Source of the DNA: a phage
Direction: 5' to 3' (one strand)
Length of the DNA stretch: 64,000 nt
NCBI GenBank assembly: GCA_017003895.1
Contig: GCA_017003895.1_4520.1
Shown: positions 904 through 58,002 of the stretch, one piece after another
Layout: each line of letters begins with the position of its first letter
Numbering within the stretch: position 1 is the first letter of the stretch
The notes under the pieces: model-generated
Databases searched by the model: none
Seen by the model: the letters and a program-made list of their open reading frames with translations, nothing else
What the model was told of the DNA's origin: nothing
Translations under genes and position numbers: made by a program

Positions 904-2672
904 AACCTGAAGAAATGAAATCCATGCGTAGAAATAAGGTCATTGCCGATAATAAACCACAAAAAGTAGCTGCAACAGCAGCTACCGATTCATTAGAAGC
1001 ATTGAATGACATTTCATCAAAACTAGACGATGTCCAAGCCGCGTCTGAACTCACATCACAAAGTGTAGAAGATAAAGGCAATGGAATCATTGAATCAATT
1101 GGAGACTTAAAGAATTCGACAGATAATACTGCTGAAGGCACAGAGCTTATCGCAGAAGTTATTGAAAAACAAACTGAAGTCACTAAAAGTATAAACGAAG
1201 TTTCTAGTGCAATAAGCTCTAAGTTAGACCGATTAGCTACATTATTAGAGCAAAAATTACAAACATCTACCGCTATTCAAAATACAGGAGGCACCTCTCT
1301 TGAAGTAATTGAGAACGCAATACCTGTTAAAGTGGTTGAGAATGAAACTTCTGATGAGTTGTTTAAAGCATTCCCTACACCTGAAAAGATTGATAATAAG
1401 CCAGACGAAGATTTCTTCCCAGCACCGGTTCAAGAAAGTGCTAATTCTACTTCCGATTCTAAAGGCGGAATTAGCTTTAAATTGAGCGATAAAATTGCAA
1501 TGCTCACCAAAACAGTTCAAACCGGGTTTAATAAATCAATATCAATTTCAGACAGAATTGCTGGAATGCTTTTCAAATACACTATAACGGCTGCTATTGA
1601 AGCAGCAAAAATGGCCGCACTTATTCTTGGTATTGTTATCGGTATTGATTTATTGATAGTCCATTTCAAATATTGGACAGACAAGTTCACTTCTGCCTGG
1701 GATTTATTTGATGAAAACTTTACTAAATTCTCCGATGAAGCTAAAGAGTGGGGTAAATTCTTAAGCGATATATTCACCTCTGTTGACTCGATAAAACAAT
1801 TATGGGAAGCTGGAGACTGGGGTGGTTTAACCGTTGCTATTGTCAAAGGTGTAGGAACAGCATTAATGAACTTAGGTGAACTAATTCAATTAGGAATGGC
1901 TAAACTCTCTGCTTCTATATTGCGTGCTATAGGTTTTGGTGATACAGCGGACGAAATAGAAGGACGTGCTTTAGAAGGATTCCAAGAAACTACTGGGAAC
2001 AAATTAAAGAAAGAAGACCAAGAGAAAGTCGCTAAATATCAAATGAAACGTGACGATGGGGAATTAGGAACCGTTTCTAAAGGTCTTGATATGTTACAAC
2101 GCGGCAAAACATTCGTTACTAACTGGGTTCGTGGTAATGACAATAAAGAAGAGTTTAGTACAAGCGATGAGCGTGCTGCGGAATCAGCAAAATTAAAAGA
2201 GTTACCTGAAGAGGAGCGTAAAGAGGCGTATATAAAAGCTAATGAAACTCGTGCGGCACTGGTTAGATTTGAGGATTATATCGATAAAATCGATATGACT
2301 AATCCAGAAAATGCTAAAAACGTCGAGAAGTCTTATGCTGATTTAAGTAAACTTATTAAAGACCCTGAACTTAATAAAACTCCTGTTGTTAAAAAGGAAT
2401 TAGATGCTAGATTTGAAAAGCTAAATAATAAAATGGCTGAAGCCAAAAAGGCTCAGACCACAGTTAAGCCTGAATCTTCGTCTAAATCTCCGGAAGCAAA
2501 ACAAGTTCAGTCAATAGAGAAAGGACGTGCTTCTGAATCTAAACAACAGCAACCGGTAGCGGCGATTAGTAACACAAATAATGTCGTCAAAAAGAATACC
2601 GTAGTCCAGAATATGACCCCTGTAACAAGTACAACGGCTCCTGGAATTTTCCATGCCACCGGTGTTAATTAA
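900..2672 (+). CDS. 29: Baseplate hub subunit and tail-length determinator gp29
   Basis: 590 aa, same length as T4 gp29; start overlaps the gp28 stop (ATGA); position upstream of 48 and 54. Confidence 0.75.
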   Translation: MKPEEMKSMRRNKVIADNKPQKVAATAATDSLEALNDISSKLDDVQAASELTSQSVEDKGNGIIESIGDLKNSTDNTAEGTELIAEVIEKQTEVTKSINEVSSAISSKLDRLATLLEQKLQTSTAIQNTGGTSLEVIENAIPVKVVENETSDELFKAFPTPEKIDNKPDEDFFPAPVQESANSTSDSKGGISFKLSDKIAMLTKTVQTGFNKSISISDRIAGMLFKYTITAAIEAAKMAALILGIVIGIDLLIVHFKYWTDKFTSAWDLFDENFTKFSDEAKEWGKFLSDIFTSVDSIKQLWEAGDWGGLTVAIVKGVGTALMNLGELIQLGMAKLSASILRAIGFGDTADEIEGRALEGFQETTGNKLKKEDQEKVAKYQMKRDDGELGTVSKGLDMLQRGKTFVTNWVRGNDNKEEFSTSDERAAESAKLKELPEEERKEAYIKANETRAALVRFEDYIDKIDMTNPENAKNVEKSYADLSKLIKDPELNKTPVVKKELDARFEKLNNKMAEAKKAQTTVKPESSSKSPEAKQVQSIEKGRASESKQQQPVAAISNTNNVVKKNTVVQNMTPVTSTTAPGIFHATGVN

Positions 2673-2680
2673 GGATTATT

Positions 2681-3790
2681 ATGATTAGTGTAAAAGAAAT
2701 AGTAGTAGATGCAAAGGATTTAAATAAAGCAATCCCAGTCTCAGAAAGTGCTGGGCAAAGCACTAAAACCGAAACAACTACTAAAACTTATGTTGCCCAA
2801 TTTCCTACAGGAAGAGCAGCCGGAAATGACTCCACAGGAGACTTCCAGGTAACGGACCTTTATAAGAATGGATTATTATTTACCGCGTACAATATGTCTG
2901 CACGCGATTCAGGATCCCTCAGGAATTTACGTCCGGCGTATGCCGGGACTTCATCTAATGGTATCATATCAGATTTAACTGATAACGTGAAAGATGCAGT
3001 GACTAAATTCTCAAATGGCTTGCTTCCTGCCGGAGCTAATAAATCTACTATAAATAAAACTCCTGTTGCTAATATACTTTTGCCACGTTCCAAATCTGAC
3101 GTCGATACAACTTCACATCGTTTTAATGATATCGGTGATAGCCTTATTACTAAAGGTGGAGGTACTGCTACGGGTGTTTTAAGTAACATTGCTTCTACTG
3201 CAGTCTTTGGTGCATTAGATTCTATTACTCAAGGGCTTATGGCTGATAATAACGAACAGATTTATACGACTTCTCGTAGTATGTACGGTGGTGCTGAGAA
3301 CCGTACCAAAGTCTTTACATGGGATTTAACTCCGCGTTCAACTGAAGACCTTATGGCTATTATAAACATTTACCAGTATTTTAACTATTTCTCATATGGT
3401 GAGACCGGTAAATCACAGTACGCCCAAGAGATTAAAAGTTATTTAGACGAATGGTACCGTTCAACGTTTATTGAGCCTATGACGCCAGATGATGCAGTAA
3501 AAAATAAGACATTGTTTGAAAAGATTACTGCGTCATTAACAAATGTATTAGTTGTAAGCAACCCTACAATTTGGATGGTTAAAAACTTTGGTTATACATC
3601 TAAATTTGATGGATTAACTGATGTATTTGGTCCATGCCAAATTCAAAGCGTACGTTTTGATAAAACTCCAAATGGACAATTTAATGGTCTTGCTGTTGCT
3701 CCTAACTTACCGTCAACATTTACGTTAGAGATAACAATGCGAGAAATTATTACATTAAACCGTTCTTCACTTTATGCGGGGACTTTCTAA
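2681..3790 (+). CDS. 48: Baseplate tail-tube cap gp48
   Basis: 369 aa (T4 gp48 about 364 aa); synteny 29-48-54. Confidence 0.7.
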   Translation: MISVKEIVVDAKDLNKAIPVSESAGQSTKTETTTKTYVAQFPTGRAAGNDSTGDFQVTDLYKNGLLFTAYNMSARDSGSLRNLRPAYAGTSSNGIISDLTDNVKDAVTKFSNGLLPAGANKSTINKTPVANILLPRSKSDVDTTSHRFNDIGDSLITKGGGTATGVLSNIASTAVFGALDSITQGLMADNNEQIYTTSRSMYGGAENRTKVFTWDLTPRSTEDLMAIINIYQYFNYFSYGETGKSQYAQEIKSYLDEWYRSTFIEPMTPDDAVKNKTLFEKITASLTNVLVVSNPTIWMVKNFGYTSKFDGLTDVFGPCQIQSVRFDKTPNGQFNGLAVAPNLPSTFTLEITMREIITLNRSSLYAGTF

Positions 3791-51262: not shown

Positions 51263-51463
51263 TCACAAGTTACGTTTAAAAATTTCTGCTACTTCAAGAA
51301 GTTCTTCTTTAGTAGCTGTATCGGTTTGTATTTTATATCGAATTTCTTTAAAGCGTTCTTTAAATGACTCTGCTGATTCGATATCAAAAAATCTTTGGAT
51401 AAGTCGGAATTCCCGGAGCACCGCTTTATCAAAAAGTTCCAAGTCCACGTTATACGTTCTCAT
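51263..51463 (-). CDS. Hypothetical protein (rIIA.1 position)
   Basis: 66-aa ORF just upstream of rIIA. Confidence 0.5.
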   Translation of the reverse strand: MRTYNVDLELFDKAVLREFRLIQRFFDIESAESFKERFKEIRYKIQTDTATKEELLEVAEIFKRNL

Positions 51464-51555
51464 AATATTCTCTTCAGTAGATTGCTAGGGCACTATTACT
51501 AAAGACCATATAATTTATCATCTTATGTGTAATAGTGCCTCAGGCTATTCAGGAT

Positions 51556-52656
51556 TTACGCTGTGAAGATTTTATCCCACATCGCAACAACTGCATCTCG
51601 ATTATACTTCTTCCATACTGCTTCAGCACGTTTAACTCGAGCTTCGTATGTGTCAGTGAATTCTAATACAGCTTTTGTGTAAAGCGCAACTACTTCTTTC
51701 TTAGGAGTGGAGGAATCAATTTCTACACGCACAGTATCTGGGTCGTATTCGAATGTCGCATGAGGATAATCCTTAAAAACTAACTGGATTACAGGGACAC
51801 CTTTAGAGATGGCTTCAATAGAACTATTCTCTACCGTACCTGTGTCAGGACATGTATTAATAAGTGCTTTAGCTGTTTTAAGACGTTCCATGATTTCACT
51901 GTGTGGAGCATCAATAATAACAGGATATTTAGCTGGTGGTGCCCATTTGCTTGGACAATAACCAATACCATTTTCGCCTAGTGCTTTAATTGCTTCAAGA
52001 GCAACATCAGTGCGACGCATCTTAGTGTCATAACGTTGAGCACTAATAATCAAATCAGTTGCCGGGAGAACTTCTGGCTTTTCAGACAAACAAATAACCG
52101 GGTAGTCATCAGGTTCAAATAATGGATTTTCACGCCAGTAGTCATAATCAATTTTGTCAGTAAGAGCTGAAGTCATATGACAATATTTACGTTCAAATTC
52201 ACGGAATGCTTTAGTAGGAGCATAGCTCTTCCCACCGTTCTTGTGAATCTGGATAGTCTGATCCCAAATTTGAACAATACCACGAGACACAGGTTCAAAC
52301 GGCGTAGCCATAAAATTCTTATGAACTTTAGAGAGTCCAGCATCTTTAATTGCCTGAACGGTTAGTTTAGTCGGTTCCATAGTAACAACAAAATCGTATT
52401 CATGGATGCCGGCTAGTTCAACAATCTTACGAGCCATAGTATAACTCATACCTAGACTGAATTTAGTCAGATGACCAACAGGATGGTGTGTAACTTTCCA
52501 GTCACCAAACGTGTCATTATCAAAGCCGATATAATCAATATCAGCACCGATGGACACAAGATATTTCAACACATTTAAATGTACTGCTTCAAGTCCACCT
52601 TGTACACGGTCAGGATTAAATGGGACTGCACGAGATGGGATAAACATAACTTTCAT
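51556..52656 (-). CDS. GT-B fold glycosyltransferase-like protein (GT4-like); candidate DNA or sugar-modifying enzyme
   Basis: 366 aa; N-terminal ...VQGGLEAVH... (GGxE-like) and C-terminal ...TGTVENSSIEAISKGVPVI...YDPD... resembling the GT4 nucleotide-sugar binding signature. Confidence 0.55.
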   Translation of the reverse strand: MKVMFIPSRAVPFNPDRVQGGLEAVHLNVLKYLVSIGADIDYIGFDNDTFGDWKVTHHPVGHLTKFSLGMSYTMARKIVELAGIHEYDFVVTMEPTKLTVQAIKDAGLSKVHKNFMATPFEPVSRGIVQIWDQTIQIHKNGGKSYAPTKAFREFERKYCHMTSALTDKIDYDYWRENPLFEPDDYPVICLSEKPEVLPATDLIISAQRYDTKMRRTDVALEAIKALGENGIGYCPSKWAPPAKYPVIIDAPHSEIMERLKTAKALINTCPDTGTVENSSIEAISKGVPVIQLVFKDYPHATFEYDPDTVRVEIDSSTPKKEVVALYTKAVLEFTDTYEARVKRAEAVWKKYNRDAVVAMWDKIFTA

Positions 52657-52672
52657 AATTAAGCCTTATTAA

Positions 52673-52690
52673 AATTAAAATGAAGCTCCC
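52673..52690 (-). terminator. CUUCGG tetraloop hairpin after gene 39
   Basis: aagctcc-cgaa-ggagctt; followed on the minus strand by a U-rich stretch. Confidence 0.45.
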
Positions 52691-52698
52691 GAAGGAGC

Positions 52699-54516
52699 TT
52701 AGGACATCCATTCTTTACGAAGTTCTGAATCATCACCCATCAACATTTCAAATAGTTCTTTCCAATTTTCAGGAAGTTTAACTACGTCGTACACAGGGTT
52801 CTGAATCATTTCACGATATTCTGACTTTTCAAGGGAGCCTAATCCCTTGATGTATCGAATACTATGCTTAGGCAGTGTATCTTTAACTTCTTCATACTCA
52901 GCTACAGTATAAAACCATTTTTGAGTTTTGCCAATTTGTGCAATAATTACAGGCGTTTTAACAAAGCGAATACGTCCCTGTTCAAACAATTCAGGCCAAT
53001 TACTAAAGAAAGCAAGCAAAGCCGGATAAATACTTCCAAGACCGTCATGATCGGCATCGGTCATAATTGCAATATTACGATAGTTCGTATTCTCTGCCTT
53101 TTCGCCAAGAATAAGACCTGTGATAGCACAGATATCAAAGAGCTCTTTGTTCTTCATCATATCAGCATATGACATACCCCAGCTATTCATCACCTTACCA
53201 CGTAACGGGAATCCACCGTGTAGTTCACGGTCACGAACATCAATGAGATAACCAATTGCCGAATCACCTTCTGTTAAGAACAATGTCGTATCTGCATCTT
53301 TACCGCATTGGTTAGCTTTAATATGCTTATGAACCTTAGCTTTAGTTGCCTTTTTAGCTGCTTTAGTTTCTGCAGCCTTTTCTGCTGCCAATTTACGAGC
53401 TAATGCTGCTTCAACAATAGGCATAATCAAGGCTTCGTTTTTAAGAAGTGCCTGAGCAATTTTCTTAGCATCTAATTGGATATGATTACGAATATCACCA
53501 TACGTTGACGTTAAACGTTCTTTAGTCTGAGAATCAAAACGCATATTGCTCATGTCTCTAATAAACATCAACATTGTGAGGCATTCTTTAACACGAGCTT
53601 TAGTGACTTCAATACCCTTATATTTCTTTTTAATACCTGGCAAAAGATGTTCGCAGATATCATCCATTACACATTCAACATGATGACCACCATTTTTAGT
53701 ATGGATGTTATTCACATAAGTTAAATGACGGAAGCCATCTGGTGATGTTGTGAATGCTATAGAGACTTTATCATTTTCTTGAATGATGTTATCTTCACCA
53801 AATTGTTTAGCAAATCGTTTAAAATTACCATCAACCTTTTTACCATTAAATGTGAACTTGATATCAGGATAAACGACTGCCAATGTTTGAAGTCGGTCTA
53901 AAGTAATATCTAAATAAATTTGAGATAAATTATGCTCTTCAAATGAAGAGAAATCAGGAGTGAAGATTACTTTAGTGCCTTTACCTTTAGATTTCTTAGA
54001 AGACCATGATTTGTTTTCCATTCCGTTTGAACAGTTAACAGTGATTTCGTTTTCGCCATCTGACGTGATGCCTGTAAACAACGTAGAGAAGATATTAGTT
54101 AAACTACTCCCGACGCCGTTCATACCACCAGTCTTGCGTTCAGAGTCATCACCAAAGTTACCACCGGCCTTTGGAATAGTCCAGGCTGCTACAGGCCCAG
54201 GAATTTGTTCACCTGTTTGGTCAGTAACTAAACCTTGAGGAATACCACGCCCGTTATCTTCCACCGAAACTTGATTATTTTTAATTTGCACATCAATTTT
54301 ATTTGCAAACTTAAATGATGTACGAATAGCTTCATCAACCGAGTTGTCAATAATCTCATCGATTAATTTAACCAGACCAGGAACATATTCAACTTGTTGA
54401 TATTTACCAAACAAAAAACGCTCATGTGCTTCTTTAGCAGAAGAACCAATATACATACCACTACGTTTCTTAATATGTTCTACATCTGACAATACCTTAA
54501 TTTCATTTTTAATCAT
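52699..54516 (-). CDS. 39: DNA topoisomerase II large subunit (GyrB-like), single uninterrupted ORF covering the T4 gene 39 + gene 60 equivalent
   Basis: 605 aa; GHKL ATPase N-terminus, toprim-like region and C-terminal segment in one frame; no bypass element or separate gene 60. Confidence 0.85.
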   Translation of the reverse strand: MIKNEIKVLSDVEHIKKRSGMYIGSSAKEAHERFLFGKYQQVEYVPGLVKLIDEIIDNSVDEAIRTSFKFANKIDVQIKNNQVSVEDNGRGIPQGLVTDQTGEQIPGPVAAWTIPKAGGNFGDDSERKTGGMNGVGSSLTNIFSTLFTGITSDGENEITVNCSNGMENKSWSSKKSKGKGTKVIFTPDFSSFEEHNLSQIYLDITLDRLQTLAVVYPDIKFTFNGKKVDGNFKRFAKQFGEDNIIQENDKVSIAFTTSPDGFRHLTYVNNIHTKNGGHHVECVMDDICEHLLPGIKKKYKGIEVTKARVKECLTMLMFIRDMSNMRFDSQTKERLTSTYGDIRNHIQLDAKKIAQALLKNEALIMPIVEAALARKLAAEKAAETKAAKKATKAKVHKHIKANQCGKDADTTLFLTEGDSAIGYLIDVRDRELHGGFPLRGKVMNSWGMSYADMMKNKELFDICAITGLILGEKAENTNYRNIAIMTDADHDGLGSIYPALLAFFSNWPELFEQGRIRFVKTPVIIAQIGKTQKWFYTVAEYEEVKDTLPKHSIRYIKGLGSLEKSEYREMIQNPVYDVVKLPENWKELFEMLMGDDSELRKEWMS

Positions 54517-56471: not shown

Positions 56472-56891
56472 TTATGCGAAAGCAGCTGGGCTATATTTTT
56501 TAATTTGGAATTCAGGAACTACCATGAACTGACCAGCGAAAACGATGTTATAAAGCTTAACACCATCTTCTACCCAACGGTCGCTAATAAATCCGGCGAT
56601 TTGCTTAGTTTTCCATGGCGTTCCATCAGTTGCCGCAGCAATAGTGAATTCATGGTCTTTTTCAACAGAAACTGATCTGCATAGTCCCCATTTGAACGCT
56701 TTTTCTTCTGGCTCAATGAACTGGCTTGAGACGTAGCCAATATTACCATTAGCATCACGAACTTTAACTTGGTTACGACCAAAAACCGGATCACTCACAG
56801 AAAGAACTTCAACCAACTTCCCGGCAACTTTAGAGCGAGAAGCAACAGATACATATACGTAATCACCTGTAGAGAGATTTACAATATTCAT
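56472..56891 (-). CDS. Hypothetical protein, paralog family member 1 of 3
   Basis: 139 aa; shares SRSK(A/V)AGKLVEV and GFISD.WVEDG.KLYNIVF motifs with the two upstream ORFs. Confidence 0.55.
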   Translation of the reverse strand: MNIVNLSTGDYVYVSVASRSKVAGKLVEVLSVSDPVFGRNQVKVRDANGNIGYVSSQFIEPEEKAFKWGLCRSVSVEKDHEFTIAAATDGTPWKTKQIAGFISDRWVEDGVKLYNIVFAGQFMVVPEFQIKKYSPAAFA

Positions 56892-56900
56892 AATAATTCC

Positions 56901-57386
56901 TTAAGCTTTACGAGGAGACACATAGCGAGTGATTTCGGATTCTTTAACAACTCGGAAGTCACCTAAGAATACGATATTGTATAACTTTTCACCATCTTCT
57001 ACCCATTGGTCACTAATGAAGCCACACATGGTATCAGTTGTGCTTGGATAACCATATTCATCGATGAAGTCAAATTCTTTATCAGTCTGGAATTCAACAC
57101 CTTTACACAAGGCCCATTTGAACTGTACATTAGGCTCTGTGGATTCAACTTTTTCTCTTGAAGCAAAAGCACTACTCGCAGGAGTTTCCAAGAACTTTGC
57201 ACGAACATAAGCGAACTGAGTTTCCCTCGACCCAAGACTAGGAATAATACGAACTTTTACCTCAGAATCTTCATCTTTAACGCCTTCTTTAAGTTGAATA
57301 CTTACAACTTCGACCAATTTTCCTGCTGCTTTAGAACGAGATTTGTTAGATACGCGAACGATTTCACCAATAATACCAAGATTCAT
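56901..57386 (-). CDS. Hypothetical protein, paralog family member 2 of 3
   Basis: 161 aa; same conserved N- and C-terminal motifs as 56472..56891. Confidence 0.55.
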   Translation of the reverse strand: MNLGIIGEIVRVSNKSRSKAAGKLVEVVSIQLKEGVKDEDSEVKVRIIPSLGSRETQFAYVRAKFLETPASSAFASREKVESTEPNVQFKWALCKGVEFQTDKEFDFIDEYGYPSTTDTMCGFISDQWVEDGEKLYNIVFLGDFRVVKESEITRYVSPRKA

Positions 57387-57415
57387 AATTTTCTCTCTTT
57401 GTTTAAGTTGAATTC

Positions 57416-57444
57416 ATTATACTCCACCCGTCCTTGGATGTACA
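57416..57444 (-). promoter_or_regulatory. Early promoter, TGTACA-N17-TATAAT
   Basis: Plus tgtaca at 57439-57444 and attata at 57416-57421. Confidence 0.5.
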
Positions 57445-57447
57445 ACA

Positions 57448-57942
57448 TTAATTAAGGATATTAACCACAGCACTACGTGGAACTACACTAAAATCACCTG
57501 CATGAACAACGTTCAGAAGTTCAACACCGTCTTCAATCCACTGATCAGTCACCCATCCATTTACTGGACCAGCGAATGGGCGTCGAATTGAAACATATTT
57601 ACACAACAAATCAGTAGGCTCAATAGGCTTAATCAGAGTACCGTACATACAAGCGATATCCATATCAATACAGATATCTTTAACGGGTTCTACTTCTTCA
57701 ATCAACAGTTCAAAGTCGGTGCTTGGAAGGGCGGTGGTAGAAATTGTACCATATGAATTTTTAATTTCTAAGAATAACCAAGGGCCTTCAACTTGTTTGA
57801 TGAAGTTAACAATAGTGAAACTATTACCTTGAGTGGCACCTAAAATTTCACAAAACTTTTCATAAGCTCGCACTGAAGCACCGTACCAGTTGATTTGTTT
57901 TTCATCTTTCAGGATGTAAGTAGCCGTAGTATTGATATTCAT
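57448..57942 (-). CDS. Hypothetical protein, paralog family member 3 of 3 (start moved to internal Met)
   Basis: Track ORF start 57984 lies inside the promoter; ATG at 57940-57942 (MNINTTATYIL) is downstream of it; C-terminus GWVTDQWIEDGVELLNVVHAGDFSVV matches the paralog motif. Confidence 0.5.
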   Translation of the reverse strand: MNINTTATYILKDEKQINWYGASVRAYEKFCEILGATQGNSFTIVNFIKQVEGPWLFLEIKNSYGTISTTALPSTDFELLIEEVEPVKDICIDMDIACMYGTLIKPIEPTDLLCKYVSIRRPFAGPVNGWVTDQWIEDGVELLNVVHAGDFSVVPRSAVVNILN

Positions 57943-57972
57943 AATGTTTTCCTGTTTGGTTAAGATAGAAAG

Positions 57973-58002
57973 ATTATACTCCAACCATCCTTGGTTGTAA
58001 AC
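57973..58002 (-). promoter_or_regulatory. Early promoter, GTTTACA-N18-TATAAT
   Basis: Plus gtaaac at 57997-58002 and attata at 57973-57978. Confidence 0.5.

Follow-up and report, generated by a model that had tools for sequence, protein, structure and literature searches.

A GT-B glycosyltransferase gene between rIIA.1 and gene 39 of a Mosigvirus, and its probable role in adding the second arabinose to phage DNA

Arabinose has been reported in the DNA of phage RB69, where ORF003c was proposed as the arabinosyltransferase on the evidence of hidden Markov model (HMM) and HHpred searches (Thomas et al., 2018; PMC6024577). Mass spectrometry and nuclear magnetic resonance (NMR) later showed the base to be 5-hydroxycytosine and not 5-hydroxymethylcytosine (hmC) (Lee et al., 2026; PMC13326640), and in Mosigviruses, the RB69-like phages, it carries an arabinofuranose (Araf) through an ether bond (PMC13326640; PMC13390438). 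A disaccharide has been observed in these phages, with RB69 DNA identified by NMR as beta-D-Araf-(1->3)-alpha-D-Araf-5-hydroxy-deoxycytidine (5-hydroxy-dC) (PMC13326640) and mono- and di-arabinosyl-dC occurring at a ratio of 1:4 in the Mosigvirus NP (PMC13390438). A second GT-B protein, RB69 gp46:47, which is split by a sequencing error, has been proposed as the first (alpha) transferase, and RB69 gp3 (ORF003c) as 'beta-arabinosyltransferase 2' (PMC13326640). The gp76 and gp77 proteins of the Acinetobacter phage DLP3, acting jointly, extend RB69 DNA in vitro by a third arabinose, taken from uridine diphosphate (UDP)-Araf (PMC13326640). The DNA of phage Thanatos bears a single pentose, and one glycosyltransferase of that phage (TH1_063), named in PMC13326640 as its single arabinose glycosyltransferase, has been experimentally characterised. 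Described here is a gene of the same kind, found in a 64,000-nucleotide stretch of phage DNA (NCBI GenBank assembly GCA_017003895.1, contig GCA_017003895.1_4520.1), which as a whole is referred to as the window. Its product is, with good confidence, a UDP-sugar-dependent GT-B glycosyltransferase, namely the Mosigvirus DNA arabinosyltransferase RB69 ORF003c/gp3, responsible for the second, beta-1,3-linked arabinose. The gene itself is given below, with the evidence on which the assignment stands.

51556..52656, minus strand: coding sequence of a 366-amino-acid (aa) GT-B glycosyltransferase, orthologue of RB69 ORF003c/gp3, Bas47 bas47_0105 and the HY126 glycosyltransferase (PDB 9iqz/9ir0); open reading frame (ORF), PHROG 8302, tblastn, PDB sequence match and fold matches

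The gene is already known, having been predicted in 2018, with the structure and pathway of its orthologue following in 2025-2026. A preliminary description of this DNA had placed ORF003c of RB69 at about this position near rIIA, and this proved exact: RB69 ORF003c/gp3 (NP_861693.1; NC_004928 2520..3620) shares 97.5% identity and is flanked by the same genes. Bas47 bas47_0105 is 99.7% identical, with the single substitution S191N, and the glycosyltransferase of phage HY126, deposited in the PDB in apo form (9iqz) and with UDP (9ir0) and released in 2025, is 98% identical (PDB sequence match, E=5e-197). Residues 1-366 match positions 1-366 of the profile phrog_8302, a PHROGs family of 'unknown function', with E=4.4e-221. 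When the protein was compared by tblastn with 50,697 phage records, its family was found in 212, either of Mosigvirus type or from Acinetobacter phages; 156 of these are RB69-type Escherichia coli and Shigella phages at 95-99.7% identity, and the other 56 fall below 60%, being, among the matches listed, Acinetobacter phages at about 42% with two matching places each. A profile search of 1.84 billion representative proteins returned 26 matches at E<=1e-3 and just 8 at E<=1e-30, which makes this a tiny family. The order rIIA.1 / glycosyltransferase / gene 39 and the strand are the same in the window, RB69 and Bas47. Over 14 kb the closest deposited DNA is that of phage AlbertHofmann/Bas47, at 96.8%; judged by its sequence the window thus belongs to a Mosigvirus, and since no deposited phage exceeds that value across the surrounding 14 kb, to another isolate of the genus.

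Several irregularities were seen among the records of the family. The Shigella phage JK45 (MK962757.1) has a full-length orthologue and, downstream of it and before rIIA.1, an extra 411-bp ORF (2520..2930) that also matches by tblastn, so that its locus spans 1.6 kb in two pieces against the usual 1.1 kb; the extra ORF seems to have come from tandem duplication of a 3' portion of the gene. The JK45 record is classified as Tequatrovirus despite its Mosigvirus-type gene, and one matching record has the organism name Tegunavirus. Annotation is uneven, with most orthologues called 'hypothetical protein', that of PV204681 'ATP-binding protein', that of Bas47 'putative hmC-arabinosyltransferase' and the Acinetobacter homologues 'putative DNA alpha-glucosyltransferase'. 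For the approximately 150 Mosigvirus records, 'DNA arabinosyltransferase (second arabinose), GT-B' would be a fitting label.

The GT-B character of the protein, suspected from its sequence in the preliminary description, is borne out by the fold matches and by the UDP-bound HY126 orthologue (9ir0). Two Rossmann-like domains are separated by an inter-domain cleft, with a C-terminal helix going back to the N-domain, and the nearest solved folds, at 10-15% identity, are the GT4-type enzymes BshA, PimA, MshA, WaaG and sucrose-phosphate synthase and a tetrahydrobiopterin glucosyltransferase. A single-sequence AlphaFold model (predicted local distance difference test score, pLDDT, 38) was discarded and entered no search. 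The Pfam search that had been suggested as a check gave no glycosyltransferase model, nor any other family, for the 366-aa protein even at E<=10, and NCBIfam gave no match; sequence-profile libraries alone would wrongly point to 'no glycosyltransferase'. Sequence support for GT4 is transitive and comes through the relatives: of 18 found with the family profile, 12 match PF00534 (Glycos_transf_1) and 11 match PF13439 (Glyco_transf_4), and as the weakest profile matches are ordinary GT4 proteins, they form a sequence bridge to that family. Two alignments were used to follow conservation, one (A1) comprising the E. coli-phage and Acinetobacter-phage branches of the family, the other made with MAFFT from 18 sequences and reaching relatives just 13-23% identical. 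The putative donor-site elements read from them are the following.

52588..52599, minus strand: G20-G21-L22-E23, the GT4-type 'GGxE' glycine-rich loop between strand beta1 (residues 2-6) and helix alpha1 (21-35); invariant in A1, model secondary structure
52015..52035, minus strand: R208-R214 (RYDTKMR), loop after the first strand (203-206) of the C-terminal Rossmann domain, equivalent to the GT4 'GR-x-K' phosphate-binding motif; A1 and GT4 relatives
51787..51831, minus strand: E276-I290 (ENSSIEAISKGVPVI), nucleotide-sugar binding helix and the strand that follows, in which E-x4-E replaces the GT4 E-x7-E and is followed by EA-x3-G-x-PV; A1 and the 18 relatives

The two segments that had been read by eye as GT4/GT1-like signatures are both present and conserved, RVQGGLEAV at residues 17-25 and GTVENSSIEAISKGVPVI at residues 273-290, with EYDPD at residues 303-307. 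The C-terminal one is canonical only in part: in the MAFFT alignment, which is uncertain at such identity, the canonical first Glu of the GT4 E-x7-E aligns with T272, and E276-x4-E281 is found instead. Model secondary structure places a helix at 277-284 and a strand at 289-294. G20/G21, R208, R214, E276, E281, G286 and P288 are invariant in A1; G21, E281, G286 and P288 are still invariant among the 18 sequences, where E281-A-x3-G286-x-P288-V is present in 18/18 and GG(x)E is kept in almost all. In the relatives that Pfam recognises as GT4, R208 aligns with a conserved R and R214 with K/R. Three of these positions had been aligned with T4 alpha-glucosyltransferase by Thomas et al. (2018; PMC6024577): G20 with G15, which contacts the beta-phosphate, an Arg (numbered 207 there; R208 here) with R204, and E281 with E311, which contacts the ribose. 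Binding of a nucleotide-sugar donor by the window protein is thereby indirectly supported, through the HY126 deposit 'with UDP' (9ir0) and the conservation of E281, R208 and G20-G21.

No homology to the alpha- or beta-glucosyltransferase of T4 (GT72/GT63) was detected, and hhalign comparison of a shallow family profile with the single T4 sequences gave no signal (0.2% probability), a result compatible with fold-level similarity, as the relationship is beyond such a shallow comparison. As had been noted, T4 has no comparable gene in this position, its corresponding slot holding genes 60, 60.1 and mobA and no glycosyltransferase, and its own glucosyltransferases mapping elsewhere in the genome. 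A tblastn search of the window with T4 agt/bgt and ten proteins of the RB69 polymerase-to-uvsX region (the arabinosylation-cluster genes and DNA polymerase) gave no match at E<0.07, so that neither agt/bgt nor the sugar-nucleotide genes that it had been proposed to seek were found there. In RB69 the arabinosylation cluster lies at 24.0-30.6 kb, which by coordinate mapping (window position = RB69 position + about 49,033) falls approximately 10 kb past the window end.

The proposed link to a non-canonical DNA sugar modification is in agreement with the published work (PMC6024577; PMC13326640; PMC13390438), although the term 'hmC phage' used in the preliminary description does not hold for Mosigviruses, whose base is 5-hydroxycytosine (PMC13326640; PMC13390438). 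A role in DNA modification likewise stands, with the activity now assigned to the second arabinose, added sugar-on-sugar, rather than to the base itself. Phyletic distribution argues for this assignment. The first glycosyltransferase, traced by tblastn with an RB69p047 fragment, is found in 349 phage records, including JS98-like, Klebsiella, Enterobacter, Serratia, Proteus, Edwardsiella and Yersinia phages and the Shewanella phage Thanatos. The PHROG 8302 family occurs in 212, with one copy in those of Mosigvirus type and, among the matches listed, two places in each Acinetobacter phage. Copy number therefore tracks arabinose number, zero, one and two copies corresponding to one, two and three arabinoses in Thanatos, the Mosigviruses and DLP3-type Acinetobacter phages, respectively. 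The family is limited to phages with more than one arabinose and co-occurs with the first transferase, as a second-step arabinosyltransferase should.

Genomic context outside the Mosigviruses is in line with this. In the Acinetobacter phage Apostate, two paralogues stand in tandem at the end of an arabinosylation cluster that contains, in order, an arabinose-5-phosphate isomerase, a sugar pyrophosphorylase/kinase, a phosphatase, a thymidylate-synthase homologue, the first glycosyltransferase and a kinase. On the metagenomic contig L009 (Logan SRR26937416, 450..3019), from an uncultivated T4-like phage, the homologue is 41% identical and its gene shares 4 nt with the start of a first-glycosyltransferase homologue (phrog_3891, 45% identical to Apostate orf072); a thymidylate-kinase-like gene comes next. 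On contig L008 (JGI 3300045321), from another uncultivated T4-like phage, the homologue lies beside a DNA ligase and a dsbA-like gene. These two homologues are 34-41% identical to the window protein and occupy other genomic positions, which suggests that the PHROG 8302 gene moves as a module among T4-like genomes and has repeatedly been joined with arabinosylation genes. The two Acinetobacter paralogues share 57% identity, more than either shares with the window protein (43%/41%), and are therefore co-orthologues which arose by duplication after the two lineages had split. A one-to-one orthology with DLP3 gp77, implied by PMC13326640, was considered and rejected as unsupported on these same identities.

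The most probable pathway would begin with the replacement of dC by 5-hydroxy-dC, which a thymidylate-synthase homologue, encoded at another place in the genome, would make at the mononucleotide level. A first glycosyltransferase of the RB69 gp46:47 type, unrelated in sequence, would then place an alpha-D-arabinofuranose on O5 of the base. The window enzyme would bind UDP-arabinofuranose in its C-terminal Rossmann domain; E281 is predicted to touch the ribose, and the diphosphate would be held by R208/R214 together with the G20-G21 loop. With polymerised DNA as substrate, a further D-arabinofuranose would pass from this donor to the O3 position of the sugar already present, to yield beta-D-Araf-(1->3)-alpha-D-Araf-5-hydroxy-dC, a bulkier disaccharide that may give added protection against DNA-targeting host defences.

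Other explanations have to be weighed against this one. In the sense of the 2018 ORF003c proposal and of the Bas47 name 'hmC-arabinosyltransferase', the protein would be the sole or first arabinosyltransferase, putting arabinose directly on the modified cytosine. This is improbable given the second GT-B protein, RB69 gp46:47, which was missed in 2018 through the sequencing-error split, adjoins the 5-hydroxy-deoxycytidine monophosphate (5-hodCMP) synthase and belongs to a type conserved in every arabinosylating lineage, mono-arabinosylated Thanatos included; the PHROG 8302 family, for its part, is absent from about 137 of the 349 first-glycosyltransferase records, and its copies match the extra sugars in number. 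The acceptor might instead lie outside DNA, for example in the host envelope (a lipid or polysaccharide) or among proteins or small molecules, in which case the link to DNA modification would be coincidental. The nearest folds (BshA, PimA, sucrose-phosphate synthase, tetrahydrobiopterin glucosyltransferase, WaaG) do act on small molecules, lipids and glycans, the Mosigvirus gene lies approximately 20 kb from the arabinosylation cluster, and the metagenomic homologue with DNA ligase and dsbA neighbours has no sugar genes alongside. Such an acceptor is nonetheless very hard to reconcile with the Acinetobacter-phage homologues, which take DNA as acceptor in vitro and sit within the arabinosylation cluster, with the L009 homologue that overlaps the first arabinosyltransferase gene, and with the confinement of the family to T4-like phages that also carry the first-glycosyltransferase gene.

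A non-catalytic role has also been considered, in which the protein would be an accessory, glycosyltransferase-like subunit aiding another transferase, perhaps through the targeting or stabilisation of gp46:47. DLP3 gp76 and gp77, inactive alone and active together, suggest that some members of the family are obligate partners, and the canonical first Glu of E-x7-E is replaced. The nucleotide-binding residues are however invariant, the orthologue crystallises with UDP bound, Mosigviruses make the disaccharide with a single copy, and purifying selection spans the whole of the 51556..52656 gene, all of which leaves an accessory role as a very slight prospect.

A catalytic second-step enzyme is therefore preferred, and a number of points weigh against that reading. 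RB69 gp3 is marked as putative in PMC13326640, and no direct assay of the Mosigvirus enzyme was found in the literature covered, in which He et al. (2026) and Mahler et al. (2025), the likeliest to contain such data, figure through other papers. Transfer from UDP-Araf has been demonstrated solely for DLP3 gp76 with gp77, and for the third sugar; for RB69 gp3 it is a published proposal. The DLP3 glycosyltransferases were inactive when purified singly, gp76 and gp77 being needed together (PMC13326640), so that the lone Mosigvirus enzyme may behave differently or need a partner. Because the Acinetobacter paralogues are co-orthologues, function cannot be mapped one-to-one between the lineages. As the other pathway genes lie outside the window, this phage is taken to have the complete pathway on the strength of its genus. 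Finally, the close structural neighbours of the window protein are all GT4 enzymes, a retaining family. The first arabinosyltransferase also looks GT4-like (PMC13326640). As both Mosigvirus enzymes are GT4-like, and the linkages yet are alpha and then beta from presumably one donor, one of the two must invert. It might be speculated that the E-x4-E motif is related to inversion or to the furanose donor. Taken further, the family would be an inverting beta-(1->3)-arabinofuranosyltransferase on a GT4-like scaffold, with E276-x4-E281 marking the switch, that extends a DNA-attached sugar and does not touch the base; this more specific form is put forward tentatively and is rather unlikely to hold as a whole.

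At the nucleotide level, the gene is an ATG-started ORF on the minus strand in the ORF listing of the 64-kb window, which confirms the frame and the position between rIIA.1 and the topoisomerase gene given in the preliminary description. Its neighbours on the same strand are the rIIA.1 homologue (66 aa, 51263..51463) and a fused gp39/gp60 topoisomerase subunit (605 aa, 52699..54516), the strand is that of the entire early region, and the base composition is ordinary for its region. Relative to RB69, 72 nucleotide differences result in just 9 amino-acid changes, which indicates a functional glycosyltransferase gene under purifying selection. Two signals precede the start codon.

52664..52667, minus strand: AAGG Shine-Dalgarno (ribosome-binding) site, 7 nt 5' of the ATG; read directly from the sequence
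52683..52700, minus strand: 7-bp GC-rich hairpin with a UUCG tetraloop, overlapping the gene 39 stop codon, with a weak U-rich tract after it; terminator-like scan

The hairpin folds with -10.5 kcal/mol (z=-1.6), which is not significant by itself, and is probably a leaky terminator or an RNA-stabilising hairpin; the glycosyltransferase gene is accordingly most likely co-transcribed with gene 39. A scan for sigma-70-like promoters found no convincing site in the 42-nt spacer between gene 39 and the ORF, and as 5 sites were obtained against a shuffled expectation of 7.5, no dedicated promoter is claimed. The Rfam scan of the intergenic regions flanking the gene gave no match.

On the other side of the gene, the 92-nt spacer from the glycosyltransferase stop to the rIIA.1 start (51464..51555) contains a strong minus-strand hairpin at 51489..51539, with an 11-bp perfect stem (GGCACTATTAC / GTAATAGTGCC) and an AT-rich loop with GATAAATTATAT. 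Its folding energy is -25.2 kcal/mol (z=-3.9), and 0/200 shuffles fold equally well. It is kept in Bas47, has one stem mismatch in RB69, is absent from the gene 60-rIIA.1 spacer of T4, and had no match in Rfam. It may act in processing, in stability or as a terminator; alternatively, a promoter for rIIA.1/rIIA may be concealed in it. The gene 39 product (52699..54516, minus strand) is, like that of RB69, one unsplit gp39+gp60 protein of 605 aa, and none of the T4 features, namely the gene 60 bypass element, 60.1 and the mobA insertion, is present there. Further along, at 56472..57984 (minus strand), three successive ORFs, of 139, 161 and 178 aa, resemble one another in a C-terminal segment (…GFISDQWVEDG.KLYNIVF.G.F.VV…) and constitute a small tandem paralogue family; in RB69, two genes at matching positions are annotated as MotB-like transcriptional regulators.

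RB69-like phages owe the di-arabinosylated 5-hydroxycytosine of their DNA to a pathway of which this gene is a part. Published work describes the modification as a block to many restriction enzymes, to DNA glycosylases and to some CRISPR systems; DNA modified in this way is also difficult to sequence or engineer, and is open to attack by certain type IV enzymes, among them BrxU. Mahler et al. (2025, Cell Host Microbe), as cited elsewhere, named the transferases Aat and reported Bas46/47 to be doubly arabinosylated (PMC12923530), with a defence phenotype upon deletion of an Aat in Bas46 (PMC13216743). He et al. (2026, Nat Chem Biol) are reported to have characterised the HY126 'Afh' pathway, and this work is presumably the source of 9iqz/9ir0.

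Among the described systems, the RB69, HY126 and Bas47 orthologues are the closest, sharing the 366-aa length and the position between rIIA.1 and gene 39, and differing from the window protein by few substitutions, none of them at invariant positions. The GT4-type enzymes resemble it in fold and differ in that the reaction proposed here extends a sugar on duplex DNA, draws on a furanose nucleotide as donor and gives a beta linkage. RB69 gp46:47, DLP3 gp79 and Thanatos TH1_063 (PHROG 3891) act in the same pathway, are GT-B-like (PMC13326640), and adjoin the PHROG 8302 family in Acinetobacter phages and on contig L009; they nonetheless have no pairwise similarity to the window protein, are of approximately 300 aa, occur in 349 rather than 212 phage records and are always next to the 5-hodCMP synthase. 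DLP3 gp76/gp77 (equivalent to Apostate orf069/orf070) belong to the same family, with 41-43% identity over the full length and the conserved motifs GGLE, QR, CPSKWAP and GTVEN-x3-EAIS-x-G-x-PV, and use UDP-Araf and arabinosylated DNA. They differ from the window protein in being a tandem pair inside the arabinosylation cluster that acts jointly and builds a trisaccharide with an extra 1->5 linkage.

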